Assembly (NCBI GenBank): GCA_018830945.1
Contig: JAHJRD010000093.1
Coordinates: forward strand, 14,495 to 78,494
DNA: 64,000 nucleotides
Direction of reading: 5' to 3'
Origin: Nanobdellota archaeon
Lineage (GTDB): Archaea > Nanobdellota > Nanobdellia > SCGC-AAA011-G17 > GW2011-AR17
The position numbers and the translations under genes were made by a program. A model generated the notes under the pieces. The model was not told the origin of the DNA. It did no database searches and saw nothing but the letters and a program-made list of their open reading frames with translations. Within the stretch, counting starts at the first letter, position 1. Each line of letters opens with the position of its first letter. Positions 3,519 to 64,000 of this stretch are shown here, piece by piece.

Positions 3519-3692
3519 TTATTCCTCCTTCAACTGCGTTGATAGTCCTGAAAAAGAGGCCACAATCCCCCGCTCTTTCAGCTCTTTAAGGAAATGCTCA
3601 ACATTGTTTGCAAGCTGCTCAGGATTTGTCTTGTCTGTAATGTTTACGTCAATGCTGATTCTGCTTGGCTTGAATTGTTTTGTTTGTTCCAT
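3519..3692 (-). CDS. small hypothetical protein (57 aa, not in ORF list)
   Basis: ATG near 3692, protein MEQTKQFKPSRISIDVNITDKTNPEQLANNVEHFLKELKERGIVASFSGLSTQLKEE. The stop lies 2 nt before the start of the next gene, so the two are tightly coupled. Confidence 0.3.
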   Translation of the reverse strand: MEQTKQFKPSRISIDVNITDKTNPEQLANNVEHFLKELKERGIVASFSGLSTQLKEE

Positions 3693-3694
3693 TT

Positions 3695-4030
3695 TTAGTC
3701 CCTTTTAGATCTCCCCATCTCAACTTGGCTTTTATATCCAATGCTTGAAGCGTAATCCCCCACTATCTGCTCTACCACGCTCTGCGGAGCTATGTTTTCC
3801 AAAAATGCATTGCTTGCGCTCGCCCTAATCTGCCTGCAGCCTGGATCTATTTTTATCTGCCCAAAACCAAGAGTTTCATCAAGTATAATTTTGTCAAGCA
3901 TCATTTGTTTCTGTATTCTGGAAAGAGTGTCTCCAGCCCTCAGCTGCAGTCTTCCTGTATTGTCTTTTATAACAACAAATGTATAAAGGCCATCAGGAGG
4001 CATTTCCTGTAGATATGGTTTAGTTTCCAT
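3695..4030 (-). CDS. hypothetical protein
   Basis: Start moved to the internal ATG (METKPYLQ...), which is preceded by AAGAGGA. No recognisable domain. Confidence 0.4.
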   Translation of the reverse strand: METKPYLQEMPPDGLYTFVVIKDNTGRLQLRAGDTLSRIQKQMMLDKIILDETLGFGQIKIDPGCRQIRASASNAFLENIAPQSVVEQIVGDYASSIGYKSQVEMGRSKRD

Positions 4031-15790: not shown

Positions 15791-16936
15791 ATGCACAAAG
15801 TCTCAATTGTCAAATGCAAAACTTATAATGAAAATGAGGTTTTCAAAGCAGTTGAGAAAGCAATAAAAGATATTGGCTTTAATATAAAACCAAACTCTAA
15901 GGTGCTTCTAAAGCCGAATGTTTTAATGGGTGCAAAGCCTGAAAAGGCAATAACAACTAATCCTGCAATTTTAGATGCAGTATGCAAAATCCTCAAGAAA
16001 AAGAAATGCAAAATCTTAATCGGCGAGAGCTGCGGCCTTGTTAAAGAAGGGGGTGTATTGGAAGCGTATGAAGAGGCAGGAATAACTAAAGTAGCAAACA
16101 AATACAATGCAAAGCTCTTAAGCTTCAGCAAGGAGAAATTAAGAAAAGTGCATAATAATGCAGCGGCTTTTGCAAAAGAAATGTATCTGCCTGAGATATT
16201 ATTCAATGTTGACTTGGTGATAAGCCTTCCAAAGATGAAGACACACACATTAATGCTTTACACAGGCGCTGTAAAAGTATTGTTTGGCTGCATACCAGGC
16301 GGGAAAAAGCAGGAATACCACGCGCTTGCAAAAAAGAAAGAGGATTTTGCCAATCTTTTGCTTGACATATGGCAGAATGTAAAGCCTGGATTGACAATAA
16401 TGGATGGAATAAAAGGCATGGATGGCAATGGTCCTTCAAACGGCAATATTGTAAAGCCGGGAATAATAATGGCTTCTGAATATGCAGTTGCAATGGACAT
16501 TGTTGCTGAGCGCATTATTGGATTTGAGGGAGAAGTGCTGACAAATTCAATGGCTTTAAAACGAGAACTGATAGACAAAAAAGACGTGAAAGTGATTGGA
16601 GATGAGCCGCGGTTCAAGTTCAGAAAGCCGTCTTCAGCAGCGTCAGGCCTGCCGCCATGGCTGACTGGATTTTTCCTGAAAAAAGCAATGGCTTACCCTT
16701 ATCCAAATCCGAAAAAATGCAAAAAATGCTGGAACTGCGTTAAGGTGTGCCCTGTAGCAGCAATGAAAAAAACAAGTGAGAAAGATGCGCCTTACTGCGA
16801 CAAAAAGCTGTGCATTGCCTGCTACTGCTGCCACGAAATGTGCCCGTTTGATGCAATTGAATTAAAGAGAAGCTTCTTGTTTGCATTGCCAATAAAAGCA
16901 TACAACAGAATTCTTAACCTGATTGGAAAGAAATAG
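15791..16936 (+). CDS. DUF362 domain protein with C-terminal 2x[4Fe-4S] ferredoxin domain
   Basis: N-terminal KVLLKPNVL motif and C-terminal CKKCWNCVKVCP plus CIACYCCHEMCP. Confidence 0.65.
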   Translation: MHKVSIVKCKTYNENEVFKAVEKAIKDIGFNIKPNSKVLLKPNVLMGAKPEKAITTNPAILDAVCKILKKKKCKILIGESCGLVKEGGVLEAYEEAGITKVANKYNAKLLSFSKEKLRKVHNNAAAFAKEMYLPEILFNVDLVISLPKMKTHTLMLYTGAVKVLFGCIPGGKKQEYHALAKKKEDFANLLLDIWQNVKPGLTIMDGIKGMDGNGPSNGNIVKPGIIMASEYAVAMDIVAERIIGFEGEVLTNSMALKRELIDKKDVKVIGDEPRFKFRKPSSAASGLPPWLTGFFLKKAMAYPYPNPKKCKKCWNCVKVCPVAAMKKTSEKDAPYCDKKLCIACYCCHEMCPFDAIELKRSFLFALPIKAYNRILNLIGKK

Positions 16937-17051
16937 AATCGTCTCTGTGGGCTAAGCGAAGCGCATGCCCGCACTGTTGATCAAACAATCGAAAATCACA
17001 GATTTTCGGTGTGCCGAGAACTGATGTTCTCGAGCACTGACTGCAGTTTGC

Positions 17052-17166
17052 ATCGGAATGTGCCCGTTTGATGCAATTGAGTTGAAGAGAAGCTTGTTGT
17101 TCTCTATTCCAATAAGCATTTATTATAAAGTTCTCAACTTGATTGGAAAAAAGAAGACACCATAAG
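17052..17166 (+). repeat. displaced duplicate of the last ~100 nt of the DUF362 gene
   Basis: About 80% identical to 16836..16936 and still in frame (..MCPFDAIELKRSLLFSIPISIYYKVLNLIGKKKTP*). Separated from the gene end by ~115 bp of unrelated sequence. Confidence 0.6.
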
Positions 17167-17175
17167 CTGCCTTTA

Positions 17176-17958
17176 TTACATCAGCCAAAGCTCATACACA
17201 AACATTGCAATCTCAACAGCAATAAGAATAATAATTATCCACTCAAGCATTGCGTCCCTTCTGCCGCGCAGCACTTCAAGCATTAGCTCTGAATTGTTCT
17301 GGACAAAGCCCAGCTTGTATTGAACGTGCTTGAAGCGTTCCTCAATCTCAAACATGTAATGGAGCCTGTTGAAAAGCCATTCCATCTCCTCGCTCTCCCA
17401 GGCAGAAGCCGGCTCCTCAAGCAGGGAAAGCTTTGATACAATAACCTCTATGATAGCGTTGTTGCTGCCGACTACTTTCAATATCTGCTTGTCCCTTGCA
17501 GAAAGCTTGCCTTTTTCGCTCAGCTGCCTGTTCAGCGGCGAAAACTGGGTAACCATTGAATCAACCTGATTTTCATAAAACTCAAGAGCAACAGACTGCG
17601 CAAGCACAAGCGCTACAAGACTTATGTGCTCAATGTCAGATGATTTCATCCTTATCAGGTTAAACTCAATAGAATTCTTAACATGGTCTATAACTTTATA
17701 CTCATCCCATATCTTTTCCTTTAATATCTCAACCTTTAATCCGCGCAGGTTCTTTATAGTGGCGCTTACCATAAGATCTTCAACATCATAAAACACAAGA
17801 GCGCCGAATGAATAAACAAAAACATATTTCTTGGGCGCAATCTCAAAAACAGCCCTGTCTCTTTTTTCAGAAACAAGCTTGTATTTCAAAACATCTTTTA
17901 TTTTAACTATTGGAAGTTCTTTAGCCAGAAATACTGCTTTAAACAAATGCTCTGCCAT
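17176..17958 (-). CDS. DUF155/RMD1-family protein with C-terminal TM helix
   Basis: YVFVYSFGALVFYDVED resembles the DUF155 core. C-terminal TM helix (IIIILIAVEIAMFVYELWL). Confidence 0.45.
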   Translation of the reverse strand: MAEHLFKAVFLAKELPIVKIKDVLKYKLVSEKRDRAVFEIAPKKYVFVYSFGALVFYDVEDLMVSATIKNLRGLKVEILKEKIWDEYKVIDHVKNSIEFNLIRMKSSDIEHISLVALVLAQSVALEFYENQVDSMVTQFSPLNRQLSEKGKLSARDKQILKVVGSNNAIIEVIVSKLSLLEEPASAWESEEMEWLFNRLHYMFEIEERFKHVQYKLGFVQNNSELMLEVLRGRRDAMLEWIIIILIAVEIAMFVYELWLM

Positions 17959-18100
17959 ATTCTCACTTCGTTCGATATGGCACTTCACTATCCGCTCGTG
18001 CCATATTATTCATATGCTTGGAGGGTATATAAGGGTTTTGAGTGCTTTTTAAATGACTGCTTAATAATCTATTTAAACCTTAATTTAATCACTTTAACGC

Positions 18101-19351
18101 ATGGCATACAAAGTAAAAGACATTTCTTTAAAAGACGCGGGCAAAAAGAAGATTGAATGGGCAGAGGCGCACATGCCTGTGCTTATAGCTTTGAAAGAAG
18201 AATATGAAAAAGAGCAGCCTTTGAAAGGCTTGAAGATAGCAGGCGCAATACATGTTACAAAAGAAGTGGCTGTTCTTTTGAGGACATTAACAGCATTAGG
18301 CGCTTCTGTTGCATGGGCTGGCTGCAATCCATTAAGCACCCAAGATGATGTTGCTGCTGCATTGGCTGACGAAGGCATTGAAGTTTATGCATGGAGAAAC
18401 AATCATGATGAATACTACTGGTGCATTGACCAGATTATTGCAACAAAGCCTAACTTGACAATGGATGACGGCGGAGATGTTGTTTTCAGATTGCACACTG
18501 ATTTTCCCCAGATGATGACAGATGTAATTGGAGGCACTGAAGAGACAACTACAGGCGTGCATAGATTGAAAGCAATGGCAAAAGACGGAAAATTAAAATA
18601 TCCAATAATTGCAGTTAACAATGCAGAGACAAAGTGGGACTTTGACAATATTTATGGAACAGGCCAGGGAACAATTGACGGCATTTTAAGAAGCACTTCT
18701 GTGTTATTGGCTGGAAAAAATTTTGTTATTGCCGGCTATGGCCACTGCGGCAAGGGGCTTGCAATGCGGGCAAAAGGAATGGGCTCGCATGTAATCGTGA
18801 CCGAGGTTGACCCTATACAGGCATTGAAGGCAAGGATGGAAGGATTTGATGTGATGCAGATGGATGAGGCAGTCAAGATTGGCGATATTTTTGTGACTGC
18901 AACAGGCTGCAAGGATGTTATTGTTGAAAAGCATTTCAAGCATTTAAAAGAAGGGGCTGTATTATCAAACACAGGGCACTTCAATGTTGAGGTTGATGTG
19001 AAAGCGCTTGAAAAGCATGCAAAGTCAAAAGAGGAAATAAGGGATAACTGCATGAAATATGTTTTGCCAAATGGCAAGAATGTTTACCTGCTTGCAGAGG
19101 GAAGGCTGGTTAATTTGTCAGCTGCAGAAGGCCACCCCAGCGAGGTTATGGACTTGAGCTTTGCAAACCAGGTATTGGCTTTATTGCAGATAGTGAAATT
19201 CCATAAGGACATGAAGCCTGAAGTGTATGAGATTCCTGCTGAGCAGGACCAGAGGATTGCAATGCTGAAATTAAAGTCAATGGATGTTAATCTTGATTCT
19301 TTGACAGAAGAGCAGAAAAAGTACCTTGGCTCTTATGCAGAAGGGACTTAA
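18101..19351 (+). CDS. ahcY: S-adenosyl-L-homocysteine hydrolase
   Basis: Full-length match to AdoHcyase hallmarks: HMPVL, GxGxxG NAD site (IAGYGHCGKG), and the C-terminal ...YLGSYAEGT. Confidence 0.9.
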   Translation: MAYKVKDISLKDAGKKKIEWAEAHMPVLIALKEEYEKEQPLKGLKIAGAIHVTKEVAVLLRTLTALGASVAWAGCNPLSTQDDVAAALADEGIEVYAWRNNHDEYYWCIDQIIATKPNLTMDDGGDVVFRLHTDFPQMMTDVIGGTEETTTGVHRLKAMAKDGKLKYPIIAVNNAETKWDFDNIYGTGQGTIDGILRSTSVLLAGKNFVIAGYGHCGKGLAMRAKGMGSHVIVTEVDPIQALKARMEGFDVMQMDEAVKIGDIFVTATGCKDVIVEKHFKHLKEGAVLSNTGHFNVEVDVKALEKHAKSKEEIRDNCMKYVLPNGKNVYLLAEGRLVNLSAAEGHPSEVMDLSFANQVLALLQIVKFHKDMKPEVYEIPAEQDQRIAMLKLKSMDVNLDSLTEEQKKYLGSYAEGT

Positions 19352-19359
19352 GAAGAGCA

Positions 19360-19881
19360 TTAACTTTCTGTGTATATCTCTTCTTTTGTAATATCTATTG
19401 CCTCTTTGCATATTTCCAGCAATTTCTTAATCTTATCTTTTTCTTCTATCTCTTTTTTAACGCCATACTGGTAATCTTCCCTTAAGTCTATGACATTATG
19501 CTCATGAATTTCCTTAAATTCCTCCTGATGCTGCAATGCCATAATGAACTTATTGCCCATTTTAACTTTCCCCTGCGCTTTCAGGTAAAGAATAGCAGAA
19601 ATAGTGCATTCCTGGTTCCTGCTTTCATAGCCTTGCTTGGCTAAAATAGCAAGGAAGCAATGGTAGATTGTATAAAATGCCGCGCTTGCAGACCAGTCGC
19701 TGAAGCCGCCTTTATGAAAATAAGAAATTGCCTTAAAATTATGCTCTGCTTTTCCCAAATGTGAAACTGCCAGTTCCAAATCAGGCTTAATCTCCACAAG
19801 ACCGCGGTGCTTTTTGCCTTCTGCTATTTCTTTCTTTGCCTTGTTTAAGCACCATCTTACATGATTATACGCCTGCGGCAT
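19360..19881 (-). CDS. HEPN domain protein
   Basis: Shares the YHCFLAILAKQGYESRNQ block with HEPN 41352..41831. Overlaps the upstream NTase by 17 nt. Confidence 0.6.
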   Translation of the reverse strand: MPQAYNHVRWCLNKAKKEIAEGKKHRGLVEIKPDLELAVSHLGKAEHNFKAISYFHKGGFSDWSASAAFYTIYHCFLAILAKQGYESRNQECTISAILYLKAQGKVKMGNKFIMALQHQEEFKEIHEHNVIDLREDYQYGVKKEIEEKDKIKKLLEICKEAIDITKEEIYTES

Positions 19882-20524
19882 CTGCTATTGCCTCCACTGC
19901 CTTATTTTGCCCTTTTAATACAATGCCTGTTTTAAGCGCATCAAATACAATCTTGTCCCTGGAAGCAAGATTTTCCTTTAAATCTTTCAAAGTCTGGAAT
20001 ACAGGGTGTACCATCTTAGGCAGTATTTCATTCTTTTGTTCTATCTTCTTCTTCAAAGAGCCATATTGCTCCTTGCTGACAACTATAAGCAAATCAATGT
20101 CATTATAAGGCTTATCTTTTTTAAGAGCTGAGCCGAACAGGATTATTATGTCTGCTTCATTGAACCCTTTAAATTCTTCAACCCACCGCTTATGCTTCAT
20201 TTCCGCCTCTTCCAGCAAAAGAAGCTCTATATTCTTTCGGGTTAGCGTATTGAAGTCGACCCTGAACAGTATAGCCCTGCCAAAAGCAGTTGCAGTTACA
20301 AAATGCTGCTTCTCAAGATTCTTCAATGATTTTAATGCTCCCCTTGGAGTCATGCCTACAAGCTTGCTTATCATCCTCGCATTATACCTGCTGCTGAAAT
20401 CCTTGAAAAGCAGTAGCAGTATGTTCTTTTCTTTTTCTGTTAATGCCATGGGAACCACTAGTTCATATATAGGAACTAATAGTTCTATATAAGCTTTGTG
20501 GTAGAGCAAAGGTCCATTTTGCAT
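19865..20524 (-). CDS. wHTH-fused nucleotidyltransferase (MNT)
   Basis: GSALKKDKPYNDIDL motif. Confidence 0.65.
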   Translation of the reverse strand: MQNGPLLYHKAYIELLVPIYELVVPMALTEKEKNILLLLFKDFSSRYNARMISKLVGMTPRGALKSLKNLEKQHFVTATAFGRAILFRVDFNTLTRKNIELLLLEEAEMKHKRWVEEFKGFNEADIIILFGSALKKDKPYNDIDLLIVVSKEQYGSLKKKIEQKNEILPKMVHPVFQTLKDLKENLASRDKIVFDALKTGIVLKGQNKAVEAIADAAGV

Positions 20525-20554
20525 TCCTTCTTGTCCTTAAGCCAAAGCCGCCAG

Positions 20555-21145
20555 TCAGGCTTCCTCATGCTCCATCTGCCTCCACCATTCTATCCCTGTT
20601 AGAATTATCTTTCCCTTCTTAAGGTTTTTGTAAAACTCTTTGGTAGAGTTGTGAAATGATTCCTTAAATGAAGCATAATCAAGGTAAACAGGGCTTATTT
20701 TTGTGATTGTTCTCATGCTAATCCTATTGGCTGTGTTTTCTATGCCCTTTGCATTTTCTATTTTTTGAAATACAAGCAGTATGTCAATATCCGAATCTTT
20801 TGTATAATCTCCCCTTGCATACGAGCCAAAAATCACTGCTATAACTGGCTTTTCCTCCAATTCCCGCAAAAAATCAATTATCGCTATCCTTGCTTTTGCA
20901 GGAAGCCCCTCAAGCCTTGAATATTCCACTGCATAAAGCATAGGCGTAAGGGCTTCTTTTGAATAATCTATAAAATATCTTATCTGATTGCCTGCTTTCT
21001 GCATTTTTAGCAGCTTGCTTATTTTTTTCAGGGCATAATCAACAGAGGGCATGCTTATCTTAAGCTGCTTGGACAGTTCCCTCTTGTGAATGCCTGGGTT
21101 CCTGTAAACCTGCTTCAATATCCTTATTTCTGTATTGTCATACAT
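20555..21145 (-). CDS. wHTH-fused nucleotidyltransferase (MNT), no HEPN partner
   Basis: GSYARGDYTKDSDIDI motif. Confidence 0.65.
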   Translation of the reverse strand: MYDNTEIRILKQVYRNPGIHKRELSKQLKISMPSVDYALKKISKLLKMQKAGNQIRYFIDYSKEALTPMLYAVEYSRLEGLPAKARIAIIDFLRELEEKPVIAVIFGSYARGDYTKDSDIDILLVFQKIENAKGIENTANRISMRTITKISPVYLDYASFKESFHNSTKEFYKNLKKGKIILTGIEWWRQMEHEEA

Positions 21146-21210: not shown

Positions 21211-21250
21211 GCAGATGAAGTGCCTTGGCTCATATGCAGAAGGCACTTAA
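21211..21250 (+). repeat. displaced duplicate of ahcY 3' end
   Basis: CAGATGAAGTGCCTTGGCTCATATGCAGAAGGCACTTAA compared with CAGAAAAAGTACCTTGGCTCTTATGCAGAAGGGACTTAA at the ahcY terminus. It encodes ..LGSYAEGT* identically. Confidence 0.6.
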
Positions 21251-21322: not shown

Positions 21323-22339
21323 ATGTTAGATAAAGCAATTGAGATGGAAGAAGATTTTGAAGGTTTCTTTAAAGAGATAAAACCAAGAAAAAAGCCATGG
21401 TTTGGAAAAGGGCTTGCTGCGCTCGCTGCAGCTGCTTCATTGACAATGGCAGTGCCTGAAGAAGCCCGGGCTTACCATGATGACAGGATAGGCACATTGG
21501 TTGAAGTCGAAGAAGGAGAATATACCCAGATAAGAGATCCAAACCCTAATATTTTTCCTGACGAATACATGTTTATAACACTTGCAGGCACATTGATTCT
21601 TGACGGCCCTGTAAAATGCGGATTAGGCGCATTAATACTTGACACTGACTTTGAGGAATGCATAGGCCCTGCGTTATTGGGCGGGCTTTTGGATTTTACA
21701 GGCATGGCAATCGCAAGATATGATTATCCTTTTATGGGCGGCTTGGGAAAATTAACACATGACTGGGGTGTTTCAATATCAAACAATGTAATGATTGGAA
21801 TTCCAATGTTTGACAGGTTCCAGACAGATTTTGGCCCAGTGCTTTTCAGCATTGAGCACATGACAACAGACCCTGAACTGAATGTCTATGTCCAGCCAGG
21901 GGGCATTGCAGGAATTCTTGCAAATTTTGCATTAGGCAATAGGTTTGAGGTGCTTGAAACACTTTACAATCTTACTCCAACATTTACATTTCCAAACCAG
22001 AATGCATTCTTGTTTGGTTCTCGTGTAAGAGGCTTTACTCTTGGCAGCGTTATTGCATATGGAAGAGGAGAAGATACAGACGGGCTTTATTATGTGCCGC
22101 AAACAAGAGCACATGAATTAAACCATGCATTAATGTACCAGAGCATTGGAAGAATGGTTGATGACTTATTGTACCCTGAGGTTCTTATGGAAGCAGGGTT
22201 CAGCCTTGGGCCTGACCTTGCAATGATTTTGCTGCAGGCAGCTCCAACCTTAATGTATGCAATAGACAGCAGCACAACAGACATCCACAGGTATTTCCCA
22301 TTGGAGTTTGCAGCATACTCAATGGAGCAAGACCCTTAG
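21323..22339 (+). CDS. secreted/anchored HExxH (HELNH) putative zinc metallopeptidase, paralog 1
   Basis: N-terminal hydrophobic segment, HELNHAL motif, and long blocks shared with the next gene (LDRFQTDFGPVLFSIEHMTT). Confidence 0.5.
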   Translation: MLDKAIEMEEDFEGFFKEIKPRKKPWFGKGLAALAAAASLTMAVPEEARAYHDDRIGTLVEVEEGEYTQIRDPNPNIFPDEYMFITLAGTLILDGPVKCGLGALILDTDFEECIGPALLGGLLDFTGMAIARYDYPFMGGLGKLTHDWGVSISNNVMIGIPMFDRFQTDFGPVLFSIEHMTTDPELNVYVQPGGIAGILANFALGNRFEVLETLYNLTPTFTFPNQNAFLFGSRVRGFTLGSVIAYGRGEDTDGLYYVPQTRAHELNHALMYQSIGRMVDDLLYPEVLMEAGFSLGPDLAMILLQAAPTLMYAIDSSTTDIHRYFPLEFAAYSMEQDP

Positions 22340-22374: not shown

Positions 22375-23274
22375 TTGATGAAATCAATAGCAGCGCTTGC
22401 AGCAGCAGCTTCTTTAGGCATTGCTTCTTATGCAGATGAAGCAAAAGCAGACTGGTATGACGAGCAGGTTGCTGAGCAGATGTCTGAAAATGTATACCCT
22501 GATGAATACCGCTTAATAACATTGGCAAGCACACTTGTAATGGACGGGTCTTTGAAATGCGGATTAGGCGCATGGATTAACGGCACTGATTTTGAAGAAT
22601 GCATAGGGCCTGCTCTTTTCGGCGGGCTTGTTGATTACATGGGCATGGAAATAGCGCGATATAATGATACTCCTTTTGTAGGAGCCGCTGGCAAGCTTGT
22701 TCATGACTTGGGTGTTTCAATGTCAGACAACGCAGCCCTCGGCATTCCTGCCTTAGACAGGTTTCAGACTGATTTCGGGCCAGTGCTTTTCAGCATTGAG
22801 CATATGACAACTAATCCAACATTTAACATGTATTTCCAGATAATGCCTGCTGTAGGCATAATAACAAACTTTGCAGAAGGAAACCGCTTTGAGTTTTTAG
22901 AAAGCATTTCAAACCTTACTCCTGTATTTTCATTTGAAAATGCAACAAGGGAGCATTTTGGAACAAGGTATGTAGGCTATACAATGGGAAATGTGATGGC
23001 TTATGGAAGAGGGGAAAATGTTGAGGGGTATGAACCAGGAGTTGTACGCTCGCATGAATTCAACCATACTTTAGCCTATGGCAATTTCAGGTTTATCAAT
23101 GACTTATTGCCTTCCTATCCAATGGAAAGATTGCATTTAAGCTTTGGGCCTGACTTGGCAACGCTGGTTCTTGCGCTGCCTTCAAATATCTGCTTCTGGG
23201 CAGAAGGCGACTGCTATGGCTTGTACATGTCAAACCCTCTTGAGTTCTTTGCATATAGTATGCAGAATGACTGA
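22375..23274 (+). CDS. secreted HExxH (HEFNH) putative zinc metallopeptidase, paralog 2
   Basis: Signal peptide AALAAAASLGIASYA, HEFNHTL motif, tandem paralog of 21323..22339. Confidence 0.5.
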   Translation: MMKSIAALAAAASLGIASYADEAKADWYDEQVAEQMSENVYPDEYRLITLASTLVMDGSLKCGLGAWINGTDFEECIGPALFGGLVDYMGMEIARYNDTPFVGAAGKLVHDLGVSMSDNAALGIPALDRFQTDFGPVLFSIEHMTTNPTFNMYFQIMPAVGIITNFAEGNRFEFLESISNLTPVFSFENATREHFGTRYVGYTMGNVMAYGRGENVEGYEPGVVRSHEFNHTLAYGNFRFINDLLPSYPMERLHLSFGPDLATLVLALPSNICFWAEGDCYGLYMSNPLEFFAYSMQND

Positions 23275-30335: not shown

Positions 30336-32017
30336 AAGCAAGCGAACTCTACAGCAAAAGTGAAGATGATGAAGGAAGGAATGTCAAGAAATTGATGGAC
30401 GCCAAACGGCAGGGCGGCAGAAGGGATTATTCAGCGCTTATGGACAATGTGCAGATGCGCGGCAGGCTCAACCCATTATCAAAGCTGTTTCGCATCATTA
30501 TAAAAAATTACAAGATTCTTATAAGGACCAGAACCTCTGCTCTTATCTTCCTGCTTGGGCCGCTTCTCATCATGGCGCTTGTGAGCATAGGATTTAACAC
30601 ATCCACATTGTATGGGGTTAACATAGCATCATACTCAGAATCATACTCGCCGCTTGCAGAGGCGCTTATCTCAAATTTGAGCAGCGGAGAATACATAATA
30701 CAGAAGGTTGAAACCCAGGATAAATGTATGAATGCTGTCAAGCTTGGAGAATACCCTGTATGCATCCTGTTTCCAAATGACATGGCTGTTGACAACAGCG
30801 CAAGGAATGTCATCACGCTTTACATTGATGAATCAAGGCTGAACATTGCAAATGCAATAACTGAGAAATTAAGCAGCAAGGTTGCTGTGCAGGCTGATGC
30901 GCTAAGCATGGGCGCAGTAAGCCAGATACTTAACGCGCTTGACAATATTAACAGGGAAGCAGAAGCTGCAAAAAGCGGAAGCGCAATACTTTCATCAAAC
31001 AATGCTGAAGAAGCAAGCACGCTGGCAACCGCGCTTTCAAGCATTGAGGATTTTGACTTGACAGCCAGCGCTATTGACACATCAGGGCCTGCAAGTGAAA
31101 TCAGCAGCATCCAGAGCAGGCTGAACCTAAGCTCAAGCGAATTCACTGCGCTGACTGCCAGCGTTAACACAGTCATCAATGAGTATAACAGCATCCGCGG
31201 AAAGCTTGACACTGCAAAAACAAACGCAGGCGCTGTGCAGGAGAACACAGTATCTGCAAAAAACAAGGTTAATGCTGACACAGCAATAATCAGGGATGTG
31301 AATGCAAAAATTGATACCATCAAGACAAATGTAGGCTCAGTCAAGATTACCAATGTTGAATCAATTGTAAGCCCGATAAAGATTTCAGTTCAGCCGCTTA
31401 CAAAAACAAAGAATTATTTCATATACATACTTCCTGCGCTCCTCATACTGCTTATAATGCTTGTCAGCCTGCTTATCAGCTCAACAGGCGTTATCCGCGA
31501 GAAAGAATCATCTGCATCATTAAGGAACTTTATCACCCCGACAAGCCCGGGCACATTCCTGCTCGCGCATTACCTTACTTACATAAGCATAATAGGGCTG
31601 CAGTCAGCAATAATGCTCGGAGTGACAAGGATTTTCATTAAAGATGTTCCTTTCACGACTTACCTGCTTGCCTTGGCTTTGTTAGTTATATTCGCAACAC
31701 TCTTTATATTCATAGGAATGTTCATAGGCACAATCTTCAATACAGGCGAAAGCGCAACAGTTGCTTCTGTGTCAATAGCAATAATCACCCTTGTGTTCTC
31801 AAACAGCATACTGCCTCTTGAGACACTTTCAGGGTTCCTCAGGCTTGTGGTTGAGTATAATCCGTTTGTGATGATGGAGAAGATGCTGAAAGGGCTGTTC
31901 CTGTTTGAAGCATCTATTGCAAGCATGACAAACCTTTATCTTATTCTCGGGTTCATAGGCGGAGCTGCGCTGATTACAATAGTTCTGCAGATAATGAGAG
32001 AAAAATTGATGAGGTAA
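30332..32017 (+). CDS. ABC-2-type permease with large extracytoplasmic loop
   Basis: N-terminal TM helix, ~300-aa loop, then five C-terminal TM helices. Coupled to the ATPase gene. Confidence 0.55.
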   Translation: MKASELYSKSEDDEGRNVKKLMDAKRQGGRRDYSALMDNVQMRGRLNPLSKLFRIIIKNYKILIRTRTSALIFLLGPLLIMALVSIGFNTSTLYGVNIASYSESYSPLAEALISNLSSGEYIIQKVETQDKCMNAVKLGEYPVCILFPNDMAVDNSARNVITLYIDESRLNIANAITEKLSSKVAVQADALSMGAVSQILNALDNINREAEAAKSGSAILSSNNAEEASTLATALSSIEDFDLTASAIDTSGPASEISSIQSRLNLSSSEFTALTASVNTVINEYNSIRGKLDTAKTNAGAVQENTVSAKNKVNADTAIIRDVNAKIDTIKTNVGSVKITNVESIVSPIKISVQPLTKTKNYFIYILPALLILLIMLVSLLISSTGVIREKESSASLRNFITPTSPGTFLLAHYLTYISIIGLQSAIMLGVTRIFIKDVPFTTYLLALALLVIFATLFIFIGMFIGTIFNTGESATVASVSIAIITLVFSNSILPLETLSGFLRLVVEYNPFVMMEKMLKGLFLFEASIASMTNLYLILGFIGGAALITIVLQIMREKLMR

Positions 32018-32100
32018 AGGCCTGCCTCTGGCGCACATTGATTAATTTTATTTTTTCAAAACATTAAAAGCAGTTGAATTCCAGCGAAGCTCAGCTTTTC
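32018..32100. repeat. intergenic repeat family 2, copy R1
   Basis: AGGCCTGCCTCTGGCGCACATTGATTAATTTTATT...CCAGCGAAGCTCAGC is ~80% identical to 35738..35825. Confidence 0.45.
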
Positions 32101-35193: not shown

Positions 35194-35739
35194 ATGGCTT
35201 CAATCATGGATATTGGGCTTTTGGATTATTTTGTGCCTGTGTTCATATTCATCTTCATATTTGCAATACTTTTTGCCCTGCTTGAGAAAGTCAAGGTATT
35301 TGGGGAGAACAAGGGGCTTAATGCACTGATTTCATTTGCAATAGCCTTTCTTTTTGTATTGACTCCTGACTTGCTGGGCGTTGTCAAGATAATGACTCCC
35401 TGGTTTACAATACTGTTTGTGTTTGTCATAATGATTGTTCTATTATTCATGTTTGTCGGCGTTAAAGAAGGTGATATCACAGAGGCATTTACTGAAAAAG
35501 GCATGGTATGGATTATTGTAATCGTATGCCTGATAATCATGATTTATGCCCTGACACAGGTTTACGGCGCGCAGATACAGAACATAACTGTTGACGGGAA
35601 TACGACTGCTGATGCTTCTTCTCCGACAATGACATCGCAGGTTGGAAAGATTCTGTTCCATCCAAGGGTTTTGGGCATGTTGCTACTGCTTCTGATTGCA
35701 GCCCAGGCAGTCAGGTTTCTTGCAGGGCATGCGAAATAG
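35194..35739 (+). CDS. 4-TM membrane protein, tandem paralog 3 of 3
   Basis: FIFIFAILFALLEKVKVFGENKG. Preceded by a family-2 spacer element. Confidence 0.45.
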   Translation: MASIMDIGLLDYFVPVFIFIFIFAILFALLEKVKVFGENKGLNALISFAIAFLFVLTPDLLGVVKIMTPWFTILFVFVIMIVLLFMFVGVKEGDITEAFTEKGMVWIIVIVCLIIMIYALTQVYGAQIQNITVDGNTTADASSPTMTSQVGKILFHPRVLGMLLLLLIAAQAVRFLAGHAK

Positions 35740-35825
35740 GCAGACCTCCGGCGCACGTTAATTAATTTTATTCTTTCAAAATATTAAAAACAATAGAATT
35801 CACAGCGAAGCTCGGCTTATTTCAT
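35738..35825. repeat. intergenic repeat family 2, copy R2
   Basis: AGGCAGACCTCCGGCGCACGTTAATTAATTTTATT...CACAGCGAAGCTCGGC, lying between convergent genes. Confidence 0.45.
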
Positions 35826-40770: not shown

Positions 40771-41262
40771 GTGAAAATGCCTGAAGAAGAAACACCGCAG
40801 GAGGATATGCAAGTTTCTGCCCTTAGCAGGGCTGAAGAAGAGATACCAGTGCCGTCTCCTGTTTCAGCGCCACAAATGTCAATGACGCCTTCTGCTGAGA
40901 TGCCTTCAATGCCAACTCCTCCTTCAATGGGATATGATGAGATGCAGTCAATTGTTGAGGAAATCATTGAGGAGAAATGGAAAGAGATGCTTACAAGCAT
41001 GGGTGACTTGACAACATGGAAAGTGCAGGTTGAGGATGACATGGAAGCTTCAAAGCAGGAGATTCTGAGATTGCAGTCAAGGTTTGACACAATGCAGGCA
41101 GCTATTGTCGGCAAGGTTGGGGAATATGAAGGCTCAATGAGGGACTTGTCAACTGAGATGAAGGCTTTGGAGCAGGTAATGCAGAAGATACTGGAGCCGC
41201 TGACTTCTAATATTAAGGAATTGGGAAGGATAACAGAAGATTTAAGAGGCAGGAAGAAGTAA
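40771..41262 (+). CDS. coiled-coil protein, paralog 2
   Basis: MKMPEEETPQ..., a Pro/Ser/Met-rich linker, then coiled coil. Confidence 0.4.
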   Translation: MKMPEEETPQEDMQVSALSRAEEEIPVPSPVSAPQMSMTPSAEMPSMPTPPSMGYDEMQSIVEEIIEEKWKEMLTSMGDLTTWKVQVEDDMEASKQEILRLQSRFDTMQAAIVGKVGEYEGSMRDLSTEMKALEQVMQKILEPLTSNIKELGRITEDLRGRKK

Positions 41263-41345
41263 AAGCCGGCCTCTGTCACTCCGCAAGCTGCGTTCCGAGG
41301 TCCACTTCATTGCATTCGCAGACCTCCGGCATAATTCTATTGAGA
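41263..41345. repeat. intergenic repeat family 2, copy R5 (inverse orientation)
   Basis: The reverse complement (GGTCTGCGAATGCAATGAAGTGGACCTCGGAACGCAG) matches the 35140..35193 spacer. Shares the GCAGACCTCCGGC core. Confidence 0.45.
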
Positions 41346-41351
41346 TACGGA

Positions 41352-41831
41352 CTATCCTAACACCCTTATCGTTTCCCTCTGAACCTTGAGTATCAGTTCT
41401 TTTACCCTCTTCAGCTGCTGCAAATCAATGCTTGTTTCCACGCCGTATGTGGAAATCTCCCTGGTTTCCCTTATAGTCAGGCTGGTAAGGCTGTTCTCAA
41501 CATCAAGAGTGTCAAATTGGGCAATCAAGTCCTTATCCAAATCCAGCTTATGTTCTTTTATCAAAGCAAGCATGGCGGTGATTGTGCAGGACTGATTTCT
41601 GGATTCATAGCCGTATTTGGCAAGTATTGCCAGAAAGCAGTGATAAATGGCATAAAACCCCACATTTAAAGCCCAGTCATATATCTTCAGCCTTTCAAGG
41701 GTTAATACAACACCATAATTATATTCAGACTTTTTAAGGTGCTTTTGCGCTAAATCCATGTCAGCTTTTGCCTTTACCAGCCTTTTTGCATCTTTCAGGT
41801 GCCATTTCAAATGATTGTCTATTTGCGGCAT
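41352..41831 (-). CDS. HEPN domain protein
   Basis: YAIYHCFLAILAKYGYESRNQSCT block shared with 19360..19881. Confidence 0.6.
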   Translation of the reverse strand: MPQIDNHLKWHLKDAKRLVKAKADMDLAQKHLKKSEYNYGVVLTLERLKIYDWALNVGFYAIYHCFLAILAKYGYESRNQSCTITAMLALIKEHKLDLDKDLIAQFDTLDVENSLTSLTIRETREISTYGVETSIDLQQLKRVKELILKVQRETIRVLG

Positions 41832-42421
41832 TTTTTTATTACCTCCACATATTTCTCAGGGTTATGAAATACAAGATTATCTGACATAATGCTATAAAAT
41901 GCCTTATCTTCCTTGTTTTTTAAAATATCTTTTTCAGTTATATCAACATACCTTATTGGCTGTTCAACCAGCCCTGATTTTCTTATTTCATCTTTTATGC
42001 TTTTAACCCCTGCGGATTTCCCAGCAGGGTACATAAGTAAAATGTCTATGTCATTAAAATGCCTGCTTTTTATGGACGAGCCGAATACCAACCCAAGCTC
42101 TATGCTCTCTTTAAATTTTTTCAAGCTGTGCATCAGGACAGACAGCCATTTGGGAAACTCTTCCTGGCTCAGCATGTATTCCATAAACTTTATTGCCAGC
42201 TTGCTATTGTAAGCATAAGAAAAGAAAGCGGAATTTCCTATTTCCTCTTTTACGAGCAGATTTTTGCCTGCCAAAAGGTTGCAGAGCTTATTGGCGTGGG
42301 CATGGTTGATGCCTAATATTCTTGCTAATTGCCGCGGGTTATGCCTCTCTTTGTAGCGCTTAAAAAGAAATTTGGCTATCTGGATTTCGGTCTTTGTGAA
42401 TTGTATGTTATTAACATCCAT
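41819..42421 (-). CDS. wHTH-fused nucleotidyltransferase (MNT)
   Basis: GSSIKSRHFNDIDIL motif. Start moved to MDVNNIQF because the upstream part of the listed ORF is the R6 repeat. Confidence 0.65.
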   Translation of the reverse strand: MDVNNIQFTKTEIQIAKFLFKRYKERHNPRQLARILGINHAHANKLCNLLAGKNLLVKEEIGNSAFFSYAYNSKLAIKFMEYMLSQEEFPKWLSVLMHSLKKFKESIELGLVFGSSIKSRHFNDIDILLMYPAGKSAGVKSIKDEIRKSGLVEQPIRYVDITEKDILKNKEDKAFYSIMSDNLVFHNPEKYVEVIKKCRK

Positions 42422-42467
42422 GTGTATTCTGATAGCATACAGCATATATAAGCTTTGCGTTTTGGAA

Positions 42468-42552
42468 AAGCCAGCCTCTGTCACTCCGCAAGCTGCGTTC
42501 CGAGCCCCACTTCTCTCCGCTCGCAGGACTCCGGCGCACTTCACTCAATTCC
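42468..42552. repeat. intergenic repeat family 2, copy R6
   Basis: AAGCCAGCCTCTGTCACTCCGCAAGCTGCGTTCCGAG...GCAGGACTCCGGCGCAC is ~80% identical to R5. Confidence 0.45.
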
Positions 42553-46810: not shown

Positions 46811-46960
46811 ATGACAGGCGATATAGCAAAAGAGATACTGCTGAAAGCAGCTTGTGAAGAAGTGCAAGTCCCGGAAAAGTGTCTAGAAGGATGCGGGCTG
46901 AAACAGAGTGAAATGCCCGCACGGGTTGATAAGGGCGAAGCCCTTATAGGTAGAAGGTAA
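46811..46960 (+). CDS. small hypothetical protein (49 aa, not in ORF list)
   Basis: GGGAG SD. It sits tightly between flanking genes (MTGDIAKEILLKAACEEVQVPEKCLEGCGLKQSEMPARVDKGEALIGRR). Confidence 0.25.
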   Translation: MTGDIAKEILLKAACEEVQVPEKCLEGCGLKQSEMPARVDKGEALIGRR

Positions 46961-62188: not shown

Positions 62189-63208
62189 TTATTCTGATTT
62201 CTTAGGGCTTCTTGGCGCCCTTTTTGCTCTTTTGGCGCGGCGTTCGTCTTTTTCCTTTTCGCGCTGCTGGTTTGCCTCTATTGAAGCCCAGCGTTTTGCA
62301 TTAATCTTTGCAAAGTTCACAGGATTTCTTATCTTTGAGCATAAAGGCAATGGGCTGCAGAATTGTAATTCTTTATAATATTCAACCTTGTCGCAGTTTG
62401 GCGGCAAAACAATTATTTTCTGCTTCTTGTGCCAGTTTATCTGCTCCAGCACATAGTTTTCCCTCAACGGCTCAGAATGGTTATTGTTCCACTCATAAAG
62501 CTTTTTCTCAATATCTTCCCAGCTCCATCCGCAGTGTATGAGGAATTTCAACAAAAGGAACAACGCCCTCTTTTTGCCGTCATCAAGCTTTGAGCTTAGA
62601 ATCTTTTTCATGCACGGCGGGAAGCACTCTTCTTTTACAACAATCTTTTCATCCTCAATGCCTGATGATTTCTTTCTCTCAGCAGCTAAGTTTAATTTAT
62701 CCTCTGCCCTGCCGTCCCTTTTTGCTTTTTTATCCCAGTCAAATGCCTGTATTATTAATGAAGATGCCTCATTCTGCTTTGCAGCTTCCCTGTCAATGAA
62801 TTTTAATACTGGCTTTACTGCAAACGGCTTTGCCTTTTCTTTTTCAAATGTTAAAATCTCATCCTGCTTTATGGGCAAAGAAACCAGTCCTGCCTTTTCA
62901 TGCAATGAGTATGGCGCCCTGAACATGTGCCTGCTTGAAATCAAGACAGTGTCAATGTCAACTATCTTGAAAGGGTCAAAGGAACCGTCCAATATAAGTT
63001 CATCAATTCTTTTCCCTGCTTTTTCCGCTATCTGCGATATATGCTCCTTGCTTAATATTGCTTCTGACAAGTGCCCTTTTATCATGTTTTGGAGGTAAGC
63101 AGCAATCACTCTCAGGCTTTCAGGGAACAGGTCTTTTGTTTTTATGCCGTTGACTTCGTCAGGGAATGCCTCAAAAGGCACTGCAATATGAAACCCCTTG
63201 TTTCCTGA
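62189..63208 (-). CDS. C-extein downstream of an intein junction; provisionally archaeo-eukaryotic primase small subunit (two short PriS-like motifs only) with a Cys-rich C-terminal domain
   Basis: The intein ends at ...LLLHN and the host sequence resumes at S230 (SGNKGFHI). SGNKGFHI resembles PriS motif II and VDIDTVLISSRHMFRAPYSLHEKAGL resembles motif III; these two short stretches are the whole basis for the primase call. The C-terminal Cys-rich stretch (CFPPC...HCGWSWED...NCD...C..C) is unassigned, a PriL-like Fe-S domain being one guess. The protein N-terminus lies beyond the window. Confidence 0.35.
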   Translation of the reverse strand, partial: SGNKGFHIAVPFEAFPDEVNGIKTKDLFPESLRVIAAYLQNMIKGHLSEAILSKEHISQIAEKAGKRIDELILDGSFDPFKIVDIDTVLISSRHMFRAPYSLHEKAGLVSLPIKQDEILTFEKEKAKPFAVKPVLKFIDREAAKQNEASSLIIQAFDWDKKAKRDGRAEDKLNLAAERKKSSGIEDEKIVVKEECFPPCMKKILSSKLDDGKKRALFLLLKFLIHCGWSWEDIEKKLYEWNNNHSEPLRENYVLEQINWHKKQKIIVLPPNCDKVEYYKELQFCSPLPLCSKIRNPVNFAKINAKRWASIEANQQREKEKDERRAKRAKRAPRSPKKSE

Positions 63209-64000
63209 ATTATGCAGGAGAAGAGGATAATAATTCCCAAAAAAAGCCTCTGTTCCTTTAACAGAAATGTCATAAACTTTAGCAGAACTTTTTTTGGTTA
63301 TGGATTTTACTTGTAAAATACCCACATCAGAATCTAATAATAACTCATAATTTGCAATAATCTCCTTTGAATGAGCATCAAATTCATTAGAATTAAATCT
63401 CTTGAACCATTTTATTACATTCCATATTCTTTCTGCATTGGCTCTTTTCTTGCGTAATGTCACCTGTTCAAGGCGATGATAATTAAAAAATTTAGGTTTA
63501 ATTTGCAAATAGACTCTTTTAAGCCCGTCAACTGGAAAGGTCCTATCTCTTGGGAATGGAGAAAATTTATTCCTACCCCTGAAAAATTCCTGTAAATTAA
63601 GCTCAGATTTCGGTATATTGAGTATATAAACAAAACTTCCTTTGAATATATTACCCTGCGGCAGTTTATGGGGCTTATTTTGTTCACAAGAAAGGGAGCA
63701 AGAAATCCCGTTTAATTTACAAAGCCAGAGCAGTTCAGTAATGAGCTTATGCGCAACAGATTTAATAGCGATATGGTATTTGCCCAGCTTATAACCATCG
63801 CCCCTTATATAGCCCTTTAAAAGTTCCATAAAAAGGGGTTTAGGAAGATTCCAAGCAAATTCAGGTATATGCTTATTCTTTTTTTTACCGCACAAATTCT
63901 CAAAAAAAGAAGCCCATTCTTTGGAATGGATTAATATTTGTGTAGAACCAGCATTAGGGTGCCTTATTGAGATATGCCTTTTCGTTACGCTTAAAAGAAG
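63209..64000 (-). mobile_element. intein (LAGLIDADG homing-endonuclease type), C-terminal part; continues past window end
   Basis: Block F/G VYDISV...FGNYYPLLLHN|S, LAGLIDADG-like LLKGYIRGDGY. The reading frame stays open through 64000. Confidence 0.6.

Follow-up and report, generated by a model that had tools for sequence, protein, structure and literature searches.

We analysed a 64,000-nt stretch of genomic DNA from a Nanobdellota archaeon (contig JAHJRD010000093.1 of assembly GCA_018830945.1, positions 14,495 to 78,494; hereafter the window), in which a gene end, a short structured insert that we call element E, and a second, displaced version of the same gene end follow one another between two convergent genes. 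The upstream gene (15791-16936, plus strand) is intact and encodes a 381-residue protein with a DUF362 domain and a 2x[4Fe-4S] ferredoxin domain (Pfam DUF362, 8e-53, plus Fer4). The protein is 100% identical to the database protein P0001, annotated 'Nanoarchaeota archaeon', which places the window in a DPANN archaeon, and both its length and its C-terminal IGKK are common to the closest orthologues (P0002-P0005). The downstream gene (17176-17988, minus strand) encodes a DUF155 protein of the RMND1/Sif2 type, as assigned by Pfam. Between the two lie element E, a non-coding structured insert of 111 nt (16941-17051, plus strand), and a displaced 3'-end fragment of the DUF362 gene (17049-17165, plus strand; copy 2), the stop codon of which occupies 17163-17165.

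Comparison of the region with itself yields a single direct repeat, 16829-16937 against 17049-17157, which aligns without gaps over 109 nt and is identical at 83 of 109 positions (76%; binomial P ~3e-28 per comparison, given the local base composition). A gapped local alignment pairs 16833-16932 with 17053-17152 and extends no further on either side. Copy 1 (16829-16937, plus strand) is the working gene end and comprises the last 35 codons and the stop (CHEMCPFDAIELKRSFLFALPIKAYNRILNLIGKK). Copy 2, translated in frame, reads CIGMCPFDAIELKRSLLFSIPISIYYKVLNLIGKKKTP up to the stop ending at 17165; it opens with the conserved C-x3-CP / MCPFDAIE ferredoxin motif and diverges afterwards, so that the two tails share 25 of 35 amino acids, with no gene between them. 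The upstream gene body is missing from copy 2, and element E precedes it instead. In its C-terminal sequence copy 2 resembles the orthologues P0003 and P0004, and none of the 60 homologue sequences compared has a C-terminus closer to it than these two. A first-pass annotation, made by a model from the sequence alone, had described a repeated gene end, an in-frame second copy and an imperfect inverted repeat in the insert. The repeat is real, with coordinates that shift by a few bases and an identity of 76% rather than ~80%; the reading frame and the inverted repeat (17011-17037) are both borne out, and two additional hairpins (16946-16973 and 16990-17008) accompany the latter. The same annotation had named homology beyond the ~100 nt as the sign of a separate degraded paralogue, and no such homology is present. 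For annotation purposes, neither copy 2 nor the small open reading frames (ORFs) that span element E should be called genes.

The similarity between the two copies is unevenly distributed. A core of 24 nt (AATGTGCCCGTTTGATGCAATTGA; 16837-16860, plus strand) is identical to 17057-17080 in copy 2, and includes in both copies a Phe codon (TTT) at a position where all 21 full-length orthologue proteins (P0002-P0022) carry Tyr (MCPYDAI or similar). Each of nine orthologues differs from the core at 2-6 of its 24 positions, and none is identical to it. Five bases, ATCGG (17052-17056, plus strand), separate the end of E from the core; the gene has CACGA at the equivalent position, and ATCGG resembles neither the gene nor the right ends of E copies elsewhere, so that it is probably either filler at the junction or the beginning of the arm in diverged form. 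Past the core, identity falls to ~70%, as it also does in a related assembly that carries E within a duplicated gene end (locus L053, see below), where the identical run after E is 29 nt. In the diverged part, the proportion of differing synonymous sites (pS) is 0.73 and that of replacement sites (pN) is 0.18 in the window, and the corresponding values in L053 are 0.68 and 0.13; against a conservative neutral expectation of 0.40, the low pN has P ~3e-4 in the window and ~2e-4 in L053. These values are of similar order to those obtained when either copy is compared with orthologues of other lineages (pS 0.49-0.87, pN 0.05-0.21). Third codon positions differ at 0 of 7 sites in the core versus 13 of 25 in the tail for the window (Fisher P = 0.025), and at 0 of 8 versus 8 of 18 for L053 (P = 0.031), while in shuffle tests the length of the longest identical run has P = 0.016 for the window and 0.021 for L053. 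Since synonymous sites are saturated and replacement sites are conserved, the two tails must have evolved in different lineages, each as a functional gene end, and the substitution pattern argues that they were joined by recombination with the junction at the end of the core, rather than being a local duplicate in decay. By these sequence criteria the two tails are xenologous and diverged to the grade of orthologues, with a breakpoint at the core, which agrees with the end replacement proposed in the first-pass annotation: the tails differ mostly at synonymous sites, as expected of two working ends.

The ancestral state of the junction can be judged from related genomes. Eleven orthologous loci were fetched and, with the near-identical members of L006-8, L063-65 and L067-69 counted once each, represent nine lineages by our count. 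The gene order PLD, TctA, DUF362 and convergent DUF155 is conserved across them, and the distance between the DUF362 and DUF155 stops is 0 nt in L001, L002 and L067-69, 20 nt in L063-65, 21 nt in L004, 200 nt in L003 and 239 nt in the window. With the stops touching or separated by no more than 20-21 nt in five relative lineages, the extra sequence of the window is an insertion and not an ancestral spacer, as had been anticipated from the sequence alone, and the ancestral junction is one of abutting stop codons. It is copy 2, not copy 1, that neighbours DUF155 in the window, at a distance of 10 nt, a place taken by the gene end in relatives. Unrelated material occupies the junction in L005 (503 nt between stops, with an unrelated 132-residue ORF inside) and in L006-8 (3,570 nt, with two unrelated genes inside), and the DUF362/DUF155 junction is an insertion hotspot. 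A separate observation was made in the metagenome-assembled genome (MAG) Yes70-37, accession GCA_030018575.1, where a 70-residue N-terminal fragment of a threonine synthase/homoserine kinase fusion gene lies beside DUF155 (L001, 7981-8193), followed by MNT-type nucleotidyltransferase and AAA_14 genes; the full 759-residue gene is found in L002 (2265-4544), and the fragment is a further gene end cut by inserted cargo in the same clade.

Element E was delimited from its homologous copies, an alignment of seven sequences (A1), its predicted fold and a profile search. The scaffold of ~60 nt can be written as ..YGYYTnT-GTGGGC-[loop]-GCCCGCACTGnTGnTCAAsC-[0 to 5 optional hairpins]-TGnCTGCAGsTTG, and consists of a lead-in (..YGYYTnT), hairpin 1 (TGTGGGC / GCCCGCA), the loop of which holds two CGAG-type half-repeats, and hairpin 2 (CAACCTG / CAGGTTG), which forms the right terminus. 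In the window, hairpin 1 pairs 16946-16952 with 16967-16973, and the closing stem of hairpin 2 pairs 16982-16986 (CAAAC) with 17046-17050 (GTTTG), enclosing two nested optional hairpins, 16990-17008 and 17011-17037; the second of these is the inverted repeat GTGCCGAGAAC-TGAT-GTTCTCGAGCAC. Optional hairpins belong to three types, CGAAAAT..ATTTTCG, CAAAAGC..GCTTTTG and GTGCCGAGAAC..GTTCTCGAGCAC, and are housed in the hairpin 2 loop of the window, L053 and L003 copies, and in the hairpin 1 loop of the L006-8 copy. A 127-nt stretch has a folding energy of -46.6 kcal/mol (z = -3.8 versus 200 shuffles). In alignment A1, 94% of the cells form standard pairs, versus 33-47% when the partners are slid against each other, and the single variable position of the closing stem, 's', is occupied by C-G in five copies, by A-U (A:T) in that of the window and by G-C in that of L062, which amounts to two compensatory double changes. 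The pairing and the compensatory changes lend modest support to selection for the E fold, as DNA or RNA. The right junction falls at the same terminal nucleotides in 8/8 copies and the left boundary is constant, whereas the length ranges from 60 to 200 nt and the loop insertions and deletions between copies break any common frame. The element is mostly situated just 3' of stop codons, between convergent genes.

Hairpins of the CGAAAAT-loop-ATTTTCG kind are also present free of E. They stand in tandem in an intergenic spacer (L007, 8090-8145), and a CGAAAAT-type pair lies within an ORF that reads like a TnpB C-terminus (L005, 5925-5975; ..YECDCGNVIDRDKNSAINI..). The CGAAAAT hairpins may be an independent mini-palindrome that inserts anywhere, the loops of E included. 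In the window itself, an intergenic segment at 46892-46950 contains GCGGGCT-N13-ATGCCCGCAC followed by a second hairpin (GGGC-gaa-GCCC), and may be distantly related to hairpin 1 of E, with a non-significant nhmmer E-value of 0.65.

Further copies of E were sought by scanning genome and metagenome collections for the conserved motif, which gave many chance matches in bacteria. Element E was located at seven further loci in Nanoarchaeota assemblies (L003, L006-8, L033, L053, L060, L062 and L066), making eight copies in all with that of the window. A profile built from seven copies recovers those in L003, L006-8, L060 and L062 with nhmmer E-values between 6e-21 and 2e-12, and the window copy with 1.4e-10. 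Within the 64-kb window no second copy was found by BLAST of the insert, and none of significance by nhmmer with the seven-copy profile. Protein searches returned no match for the 55-residue minus-strand ORF across the insert, and none for further copies when the 44-residue C-terminus of the L053 gene was used. The genomic settings of the copies are diverse. In L003, a 200-nt copy with six hairpins, three beyond those of the window, fills the DUF362/DUF155 junction without any duplicate, and in L006-8 (and L048) the copy lies beside DUF155 with 3.4 kb of other genes before it. Two contigs of MAG UBA9640, accession GCA_013329215.1, carry E, namely L048 and L033, and in the latter E abuts the 5' end of tRNA-Leu(CAG). 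The L053 copy belongs to a second contig of MAG Yes70-37, the same MAG in which the DUF362 junction (L001) is empty; the L060 copy, on a metagenome contig, is beside tRNA-Pro(GGG); and that of L062 lies between thermosome and YdjC-like genes. In L066, which carries the orthologue P0011, E starts 5 nt past the DUF362 stop, and the contig ends 68 nt past this stop, within E (3647-3714). The element may break short-read assemblies, and its true abundance is probably underestimated. Taken together, sequence comparison identifies E as a dispersed family of mobile elements of Nanoarchaeota, small, non-coding and hairpin-forming.

The arrangement seen in the window recurs around two of these copies. 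In L053, a protein-coding gene end (..FFDGFNVVAVLLVLSIYYAIVIVRKKK, then the stop) forms the left flank of E, and the right flank, from the last base of E onward, is a second copy of that end (FFDGFNVVAVLLILSIYYGIVIIRKKN, then the stop). In L060, the gene next to E is a complete tRNA-Pro on the opposite strand, the 5' end of which is 21 nt away, and a 13-nt duplicate of the tRNA end is present on the right of E; the sequence after this duplicate looks, as judged by eye, like the original TATA-type promoter region of the tRNA. In the window, L053 and L060 alike, it is the GTGGGC side of E that faces the intact gene, and the orphan starts no more than 5 nt from the right end of E. The succession of intact end, E, identical core and diverged old end is thus repeated at another protein gene and at a tRNA gene.

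A companion case in the same window involves the S-adenosylhomocysteine hydrolase gene (ahcY, 18101-19351), for which the first-pass annotation had also reported a duplicated 3' end. The last 40 nt of the gene (19312-19351, plus strand) do recur at 21211-21250 (plus strand) with 35/40 identity, in frame to a TAA stop, the copies being 1.86 kb apart. The intervening cargo (19360-21145, minus strand) comprises a HEPN gene (19360-19881) and two MNT-type nucleotidyltransferase genes (19865-20524 and 20555-21145), all assigned by Pfam, and contains neither a copy of E nor a recombinase gene; in L067, 19 nt separate the ahcY stop from that of the convergent SecD gene. The design is the same, the cargo is different and E is absent, so that the succession of intact end, cargo and orphan end would reflect either a general host recombination route with E as one passenger, or a route that E exploits. 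The suggestion that such events have happened repeatedly is upheld by the ahcY case in the window together with the same architecture around E in two other assemblies. All three checks proposed in the first-pass annotation thus turned out to favour its reading.

On balance, we favour a history for the DUF362 locus in which a unit made up of a gene tail and E entered by crossover in the core and displaced the resident tail. The donor unit would have consisted of a DUF362 tail, its stop codon, a few nucleotides and E, and would have come from a diverged relative; L003 and L066 have this arrangement of tail, stop, few nucleotides and E by itself, so that a suitable donor does exist. Crossover with the resident gene would have taken place inside the 24-nt core (16837-16860 = 17057-17080), in Campbell-type or att-like fashion, joining the incoming tail and E to the resident gene body and shifting the resident tail to the 3' side of E, where it would survive as copy 2. 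The product would read: resident body, core, incoming tail, stop, E, 5-nt filler, core, resident tail, DUF155. A single crossover in the core would thereby account for the duplication, the orthologue-grade divergence, the sharp boundary, the intact 381-residue gene and the orphan beside DUF155, and the insertion would be tolerated because the gene stays intact. The exchange would be run either by a trans-acting recombinase that recognizes the hairpins of E, or by host homologous recombination alone; the polarity of the event, the form of the intermediate and the enzyme are what we infer from this pattern.

Several observations weigh against this history. Against the nearest relatives, L001 and L002, copy 1 scores 84% nucleotide identity and copy 2 scores 70-75%; across the whole gene the value is 80-81%, and DUF155 shares 84% with L001. 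That copy 1 is the nearer of the two is as expected if copy 1 is the native tail. No integrase, transposase or HUH gene was detected among 40 ORFs of the window (Pfam) or beside the other copies of E. At least four of the eight copies (L003, L006-8, L033 and L062) have no flanking duplicate, so E must also insert or transfer alone, and the ~220-bp circular or permuted intermediate is hypothetical. Neither the exact identity of the core, with its unique Phe codon, nor the ATCGG filler is predicted by plain crossover between diverged partners, and both would require mismatch correction, conversion, or several rounds of integration and excision within one host. The sample is also small, at eight copies, three of them with duplicates.

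The nearer relationship of copy 1 to the closest relatives would be accommodated directly if the polarity were reversed, that is, if copy 1 were native with E after its stop, and copy 2 were a foreign tail that later entered between E and DUF155. One-ended (homology-facilitated illegitimate) recombination with a donor relative that has no E is one example of how it could have entered. Copies of E placed directly after a DUF362 stop, as in L003 and L066, fit this order of events. Reversed polarity leaves unexplained, however, why 24 nt at the edge of E, including the unique Phe codon, are identical and why the pattern of core and then divergence recurs in L053 and L060, and a donor homologous on both sides would normally delete E instead of adding a tail; we consider it unlikely. 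A passive role of E also seems to us improbable. In that case, foreign DNA would have integrated anchored on the conserved gene end, and E would be a nuclease-resistant hairpin block that survives at fragment ends. The ahcY locus has the same architecture with a HEPN/MNT cassette and no E, unrelated insertions are found at the DUF362/DUF155 junction in L005 and L006-8, and homology-facilitated illegitimate recombination has already been proposed for 3'-end displacement in other systems (PMC5361080). A passive block would hardly be expected to show the same terminal nucleotides at the right junction in 8/8 copies, a constant left boundary and a maintained compensatory change in the closing stem, and the identical cores are again left without explanation.

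Direct repeats with an identical core and an arm that restores the ORF are the classic att signature, and the 220 nt could accordingly be viewed as the stump (attL ... attR) of an integrase-bearing virus or plasmid that entered the 3' end of the DUF362 gene and whose genes have since been deleted. Such a stump would resemble the category 'cis-mobilisable element'. The boundaries of E are the same with three different cores and with none, whereas independent deletions would not give identical stumps, and no match was obtained in 50,697 phage or 72,556 plasmid records, nor any true match in two IMG/VR pattern scans, all of which makes this origin quite improbable. A local duplication of the gene end in situ, after which copy 2 decayed while gene conversion kept its first 24 nt, would explain why both copies have a Phe codon found in no orthologue. 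We give it very little credence: pS of 0.73 against pN of 0.18 past the core (P ~3e-4), 38 codons of copy 2 without a stop or frameshift, a distance from copy 2 to copy 1 as great as that to orthologues of other lineages, and the independent repetition of the pattern in L053 all stand against it. That copy 2 once ended a separate, now degraded paralogue is, finally, scarcely credible, given that homology ends at 17049 with E and not a gene body upstream, and that DUF155 directly follows the DUF362 stop in relatives just as it follows copy 2 here.

Going beyond entry by crossover in the core, a bolder and rather doubtful proposal is that E is the cis-acting module of a homology-targeting miniature integrative element in DPANN archaea. 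Such an element would capture the neighbouring gene or tRNA end as both a targeting arm and a spare part, and crossover in a core of 13-29 nt would replace the host end with a xenologous one; it would encode no protein and be mobilised by host recombination or a trans-acting enzyme. If this were true, E would programme its own target and provide a steady source of mosaic gene ends in reduced genomes. DPANN genomes are tiny and tightly packed, with convergent genes often lacking a spacer, and the locus offers a concrete route by which foreign DNA may enter without breaking a gene: the insertion brings a functional orthologous end, and the old end remains as a datable fossil. If general, the arrangement would provide (i) a sequence signature for recent inter-lineage recombination in MAGs, consisting of intact end, cargo, identical core and synonymously saturated tail, (ii) a new structured repeat family that breaks assemblies, and (iii) the possibility of a non-coding element that targets genes via a captured gene end.

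By analogy, the closest described counterpart is the C-terminal (3'-end) displacement of Rhs and type VI secretion system (T6SS) effector loci. In Rhs, contact-dependent inhibition (CDI) and T6SS loci, as here, a new end and its cargo are recombined at a conserved stretch, and the old end is orphaned downstream with a piece of that stretch. The present case differs in that it concerns a DUF362/ferredoxin gene of the housekeeping type or, at another locus, a tRNA gene; in that the tail is an orthologous replacement without new function; and in that the cargo is a 111-nt non-coding hairpin element, with no toxin/immunity pair and no different toxin domain. Integrative elements that target the 3' ends of genes or tRNAs carry a replacement end. 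With elements bounded by attL and attR the locus shares the identical core in flanking direct repeats (24 nt here, a 29-nt run in L053) and a diverged arm that restores the ORF, leaving a 381-residue protein with the normal C-terminus of the family. It departs from them in having no integrase and only 220 nt between the repeat starts, with no recombinase-sized ORF, and in that E occurs with three unrelated cores and with none.

In its size and structure E recalls the small structured repeats of bacteria, which include REP/BIME, the pneumococcal BOX element, Rickettsia palindromic elements and the IS200/IS605-derived palindrome-associated transposable elements (PATEs). Like these, it is a short, non-coding, hairpin-forming and modular element, with 0-5 internal units; unlike them, it resides in DPANN archaea, and no REP-associated tyrosine transposase (RAYT) or TnpA partner was identified. 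Its copy number appears low, with one copy in 64 kb and at least two in one MAG. We know of no REP/BIME, BOX, Rickettsia palindromic or PATE family that travels with a replacement gene end, and by comparison with these systems the locus would combine known kinds, as a small structured archaeal repeat travelling with replacement gene ends.

The first-pass annotation had further suggested that the insert, if found elsewhere in the genome, might be like a miniature inverted-repeat transposable element (MITE). This stands in a loose sense, in that E, present once in the window, recurs at other loci in related Nanoarchaeota assemblies; E does not qualify as a MITE in the strict sense. The resemblance lies in E being small, non-autonomous, dispersed among related genomes and without conserved coding capacity. 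The consensus ends of E do not form terminal inverted repeats, however, as CGTCTCTGTGGGCTAC matches the reverse complement CGCAACCTGCAGACAG at no more than 5/16 positions at any offset, and there is no fixed target-site duplication, the identical stretch being 0, 13 (L060), 24 (window) or 29 nt (L053). An autonomous element sharing the ends of E was found neither in the window, in the flanks of the other copies and in phage and plasmid collections, nor by IMG/VR pattern scans, a search that is far from exhaustive.

Other identities were examined and rejected. The 26 mismatches between the copies are of 10 kinds, with A in copy 1 at 11 and in copy 2 at 6, which does not fit a diversity-generating retroelement, and no reverse transcriptase domain was present in the scanned ORFs of the window. 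An integron attC site was discarded as neither R'' (RYYYAAC) nor R' (GTTRRRY) occurs within 16937-17060. Among RNA families, the whole window gave no match at Rfam gathering scores, permissive Rfam scans of the window and L003 copies gave chance-level hits only (<=19 bits, E-value >= 1), and ARAGORN found no tRNA or tmRNA. Examined by eye, some copies contain TGATGA and others CTGA, and these boxes are never conserved together, which speaks against a C/D-box small RNA. A TnpB omega-RNA with its guide came into question because the core comes immediately after a structured scaffold and L005 has a TnpB-like ORF. It was rejected in that form, since such a guide would be aimed at an intact gene of its own genome and the three cores have no adjacent motif in common before them; nothing ties the TnpB-like ORF to E. 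As to a bacterial-type terminator or promoter, the search produced one terminator-like hairpin, on the minus strand and at chance level.

The window holds additional direct repeats. Two copies of a GC-rich 77-nt sequence (41261-41337 and 42466-42542; 83% identical) are arranged directly and bracket a HEPN gene (41352-41831, minus strand) and an upstream ORF, the left copy starting at the stop of the ORF 40771-41262. In a separate 73-nt direct-repeat pair (32009-32081 and 35729-35801; 79% identical; family D6), each copy opens on the final codons and stop of a gene and then occupies the spacer as far as the convergent neighbour. A GC-rich stretch within this repeat, AGGCAGACCTCCGGCGCAC in the second copy and a looser version in the first, resembles the 3' part of the 77-nt repeat. 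The 77-nt and related repeats constitute a second family of GC-rich small repeats. Two HEPN cassettes in the window are flanked by direct repeats (19360-21145 and 41352-42544, the partner ORF of the second having no Pfam match), which points to cassettes of the toxin-antitoxin type as mobile cargo that recurs in this genome.

Two features lie apart from these repeats. The adjacent genes at 21323-22339 and 22375-23274 are tandem paralogues with ~72-73% nucleotide identity over ~350 nt and no Pfam match, and the same pair directly follows DUF155 in L004. At 62189-63895, on the minus strand, a primase-like ORF combines small- and large-subunit domains with a weak match to an intein-splicing domain, and may encode an intein-containing fused primase.

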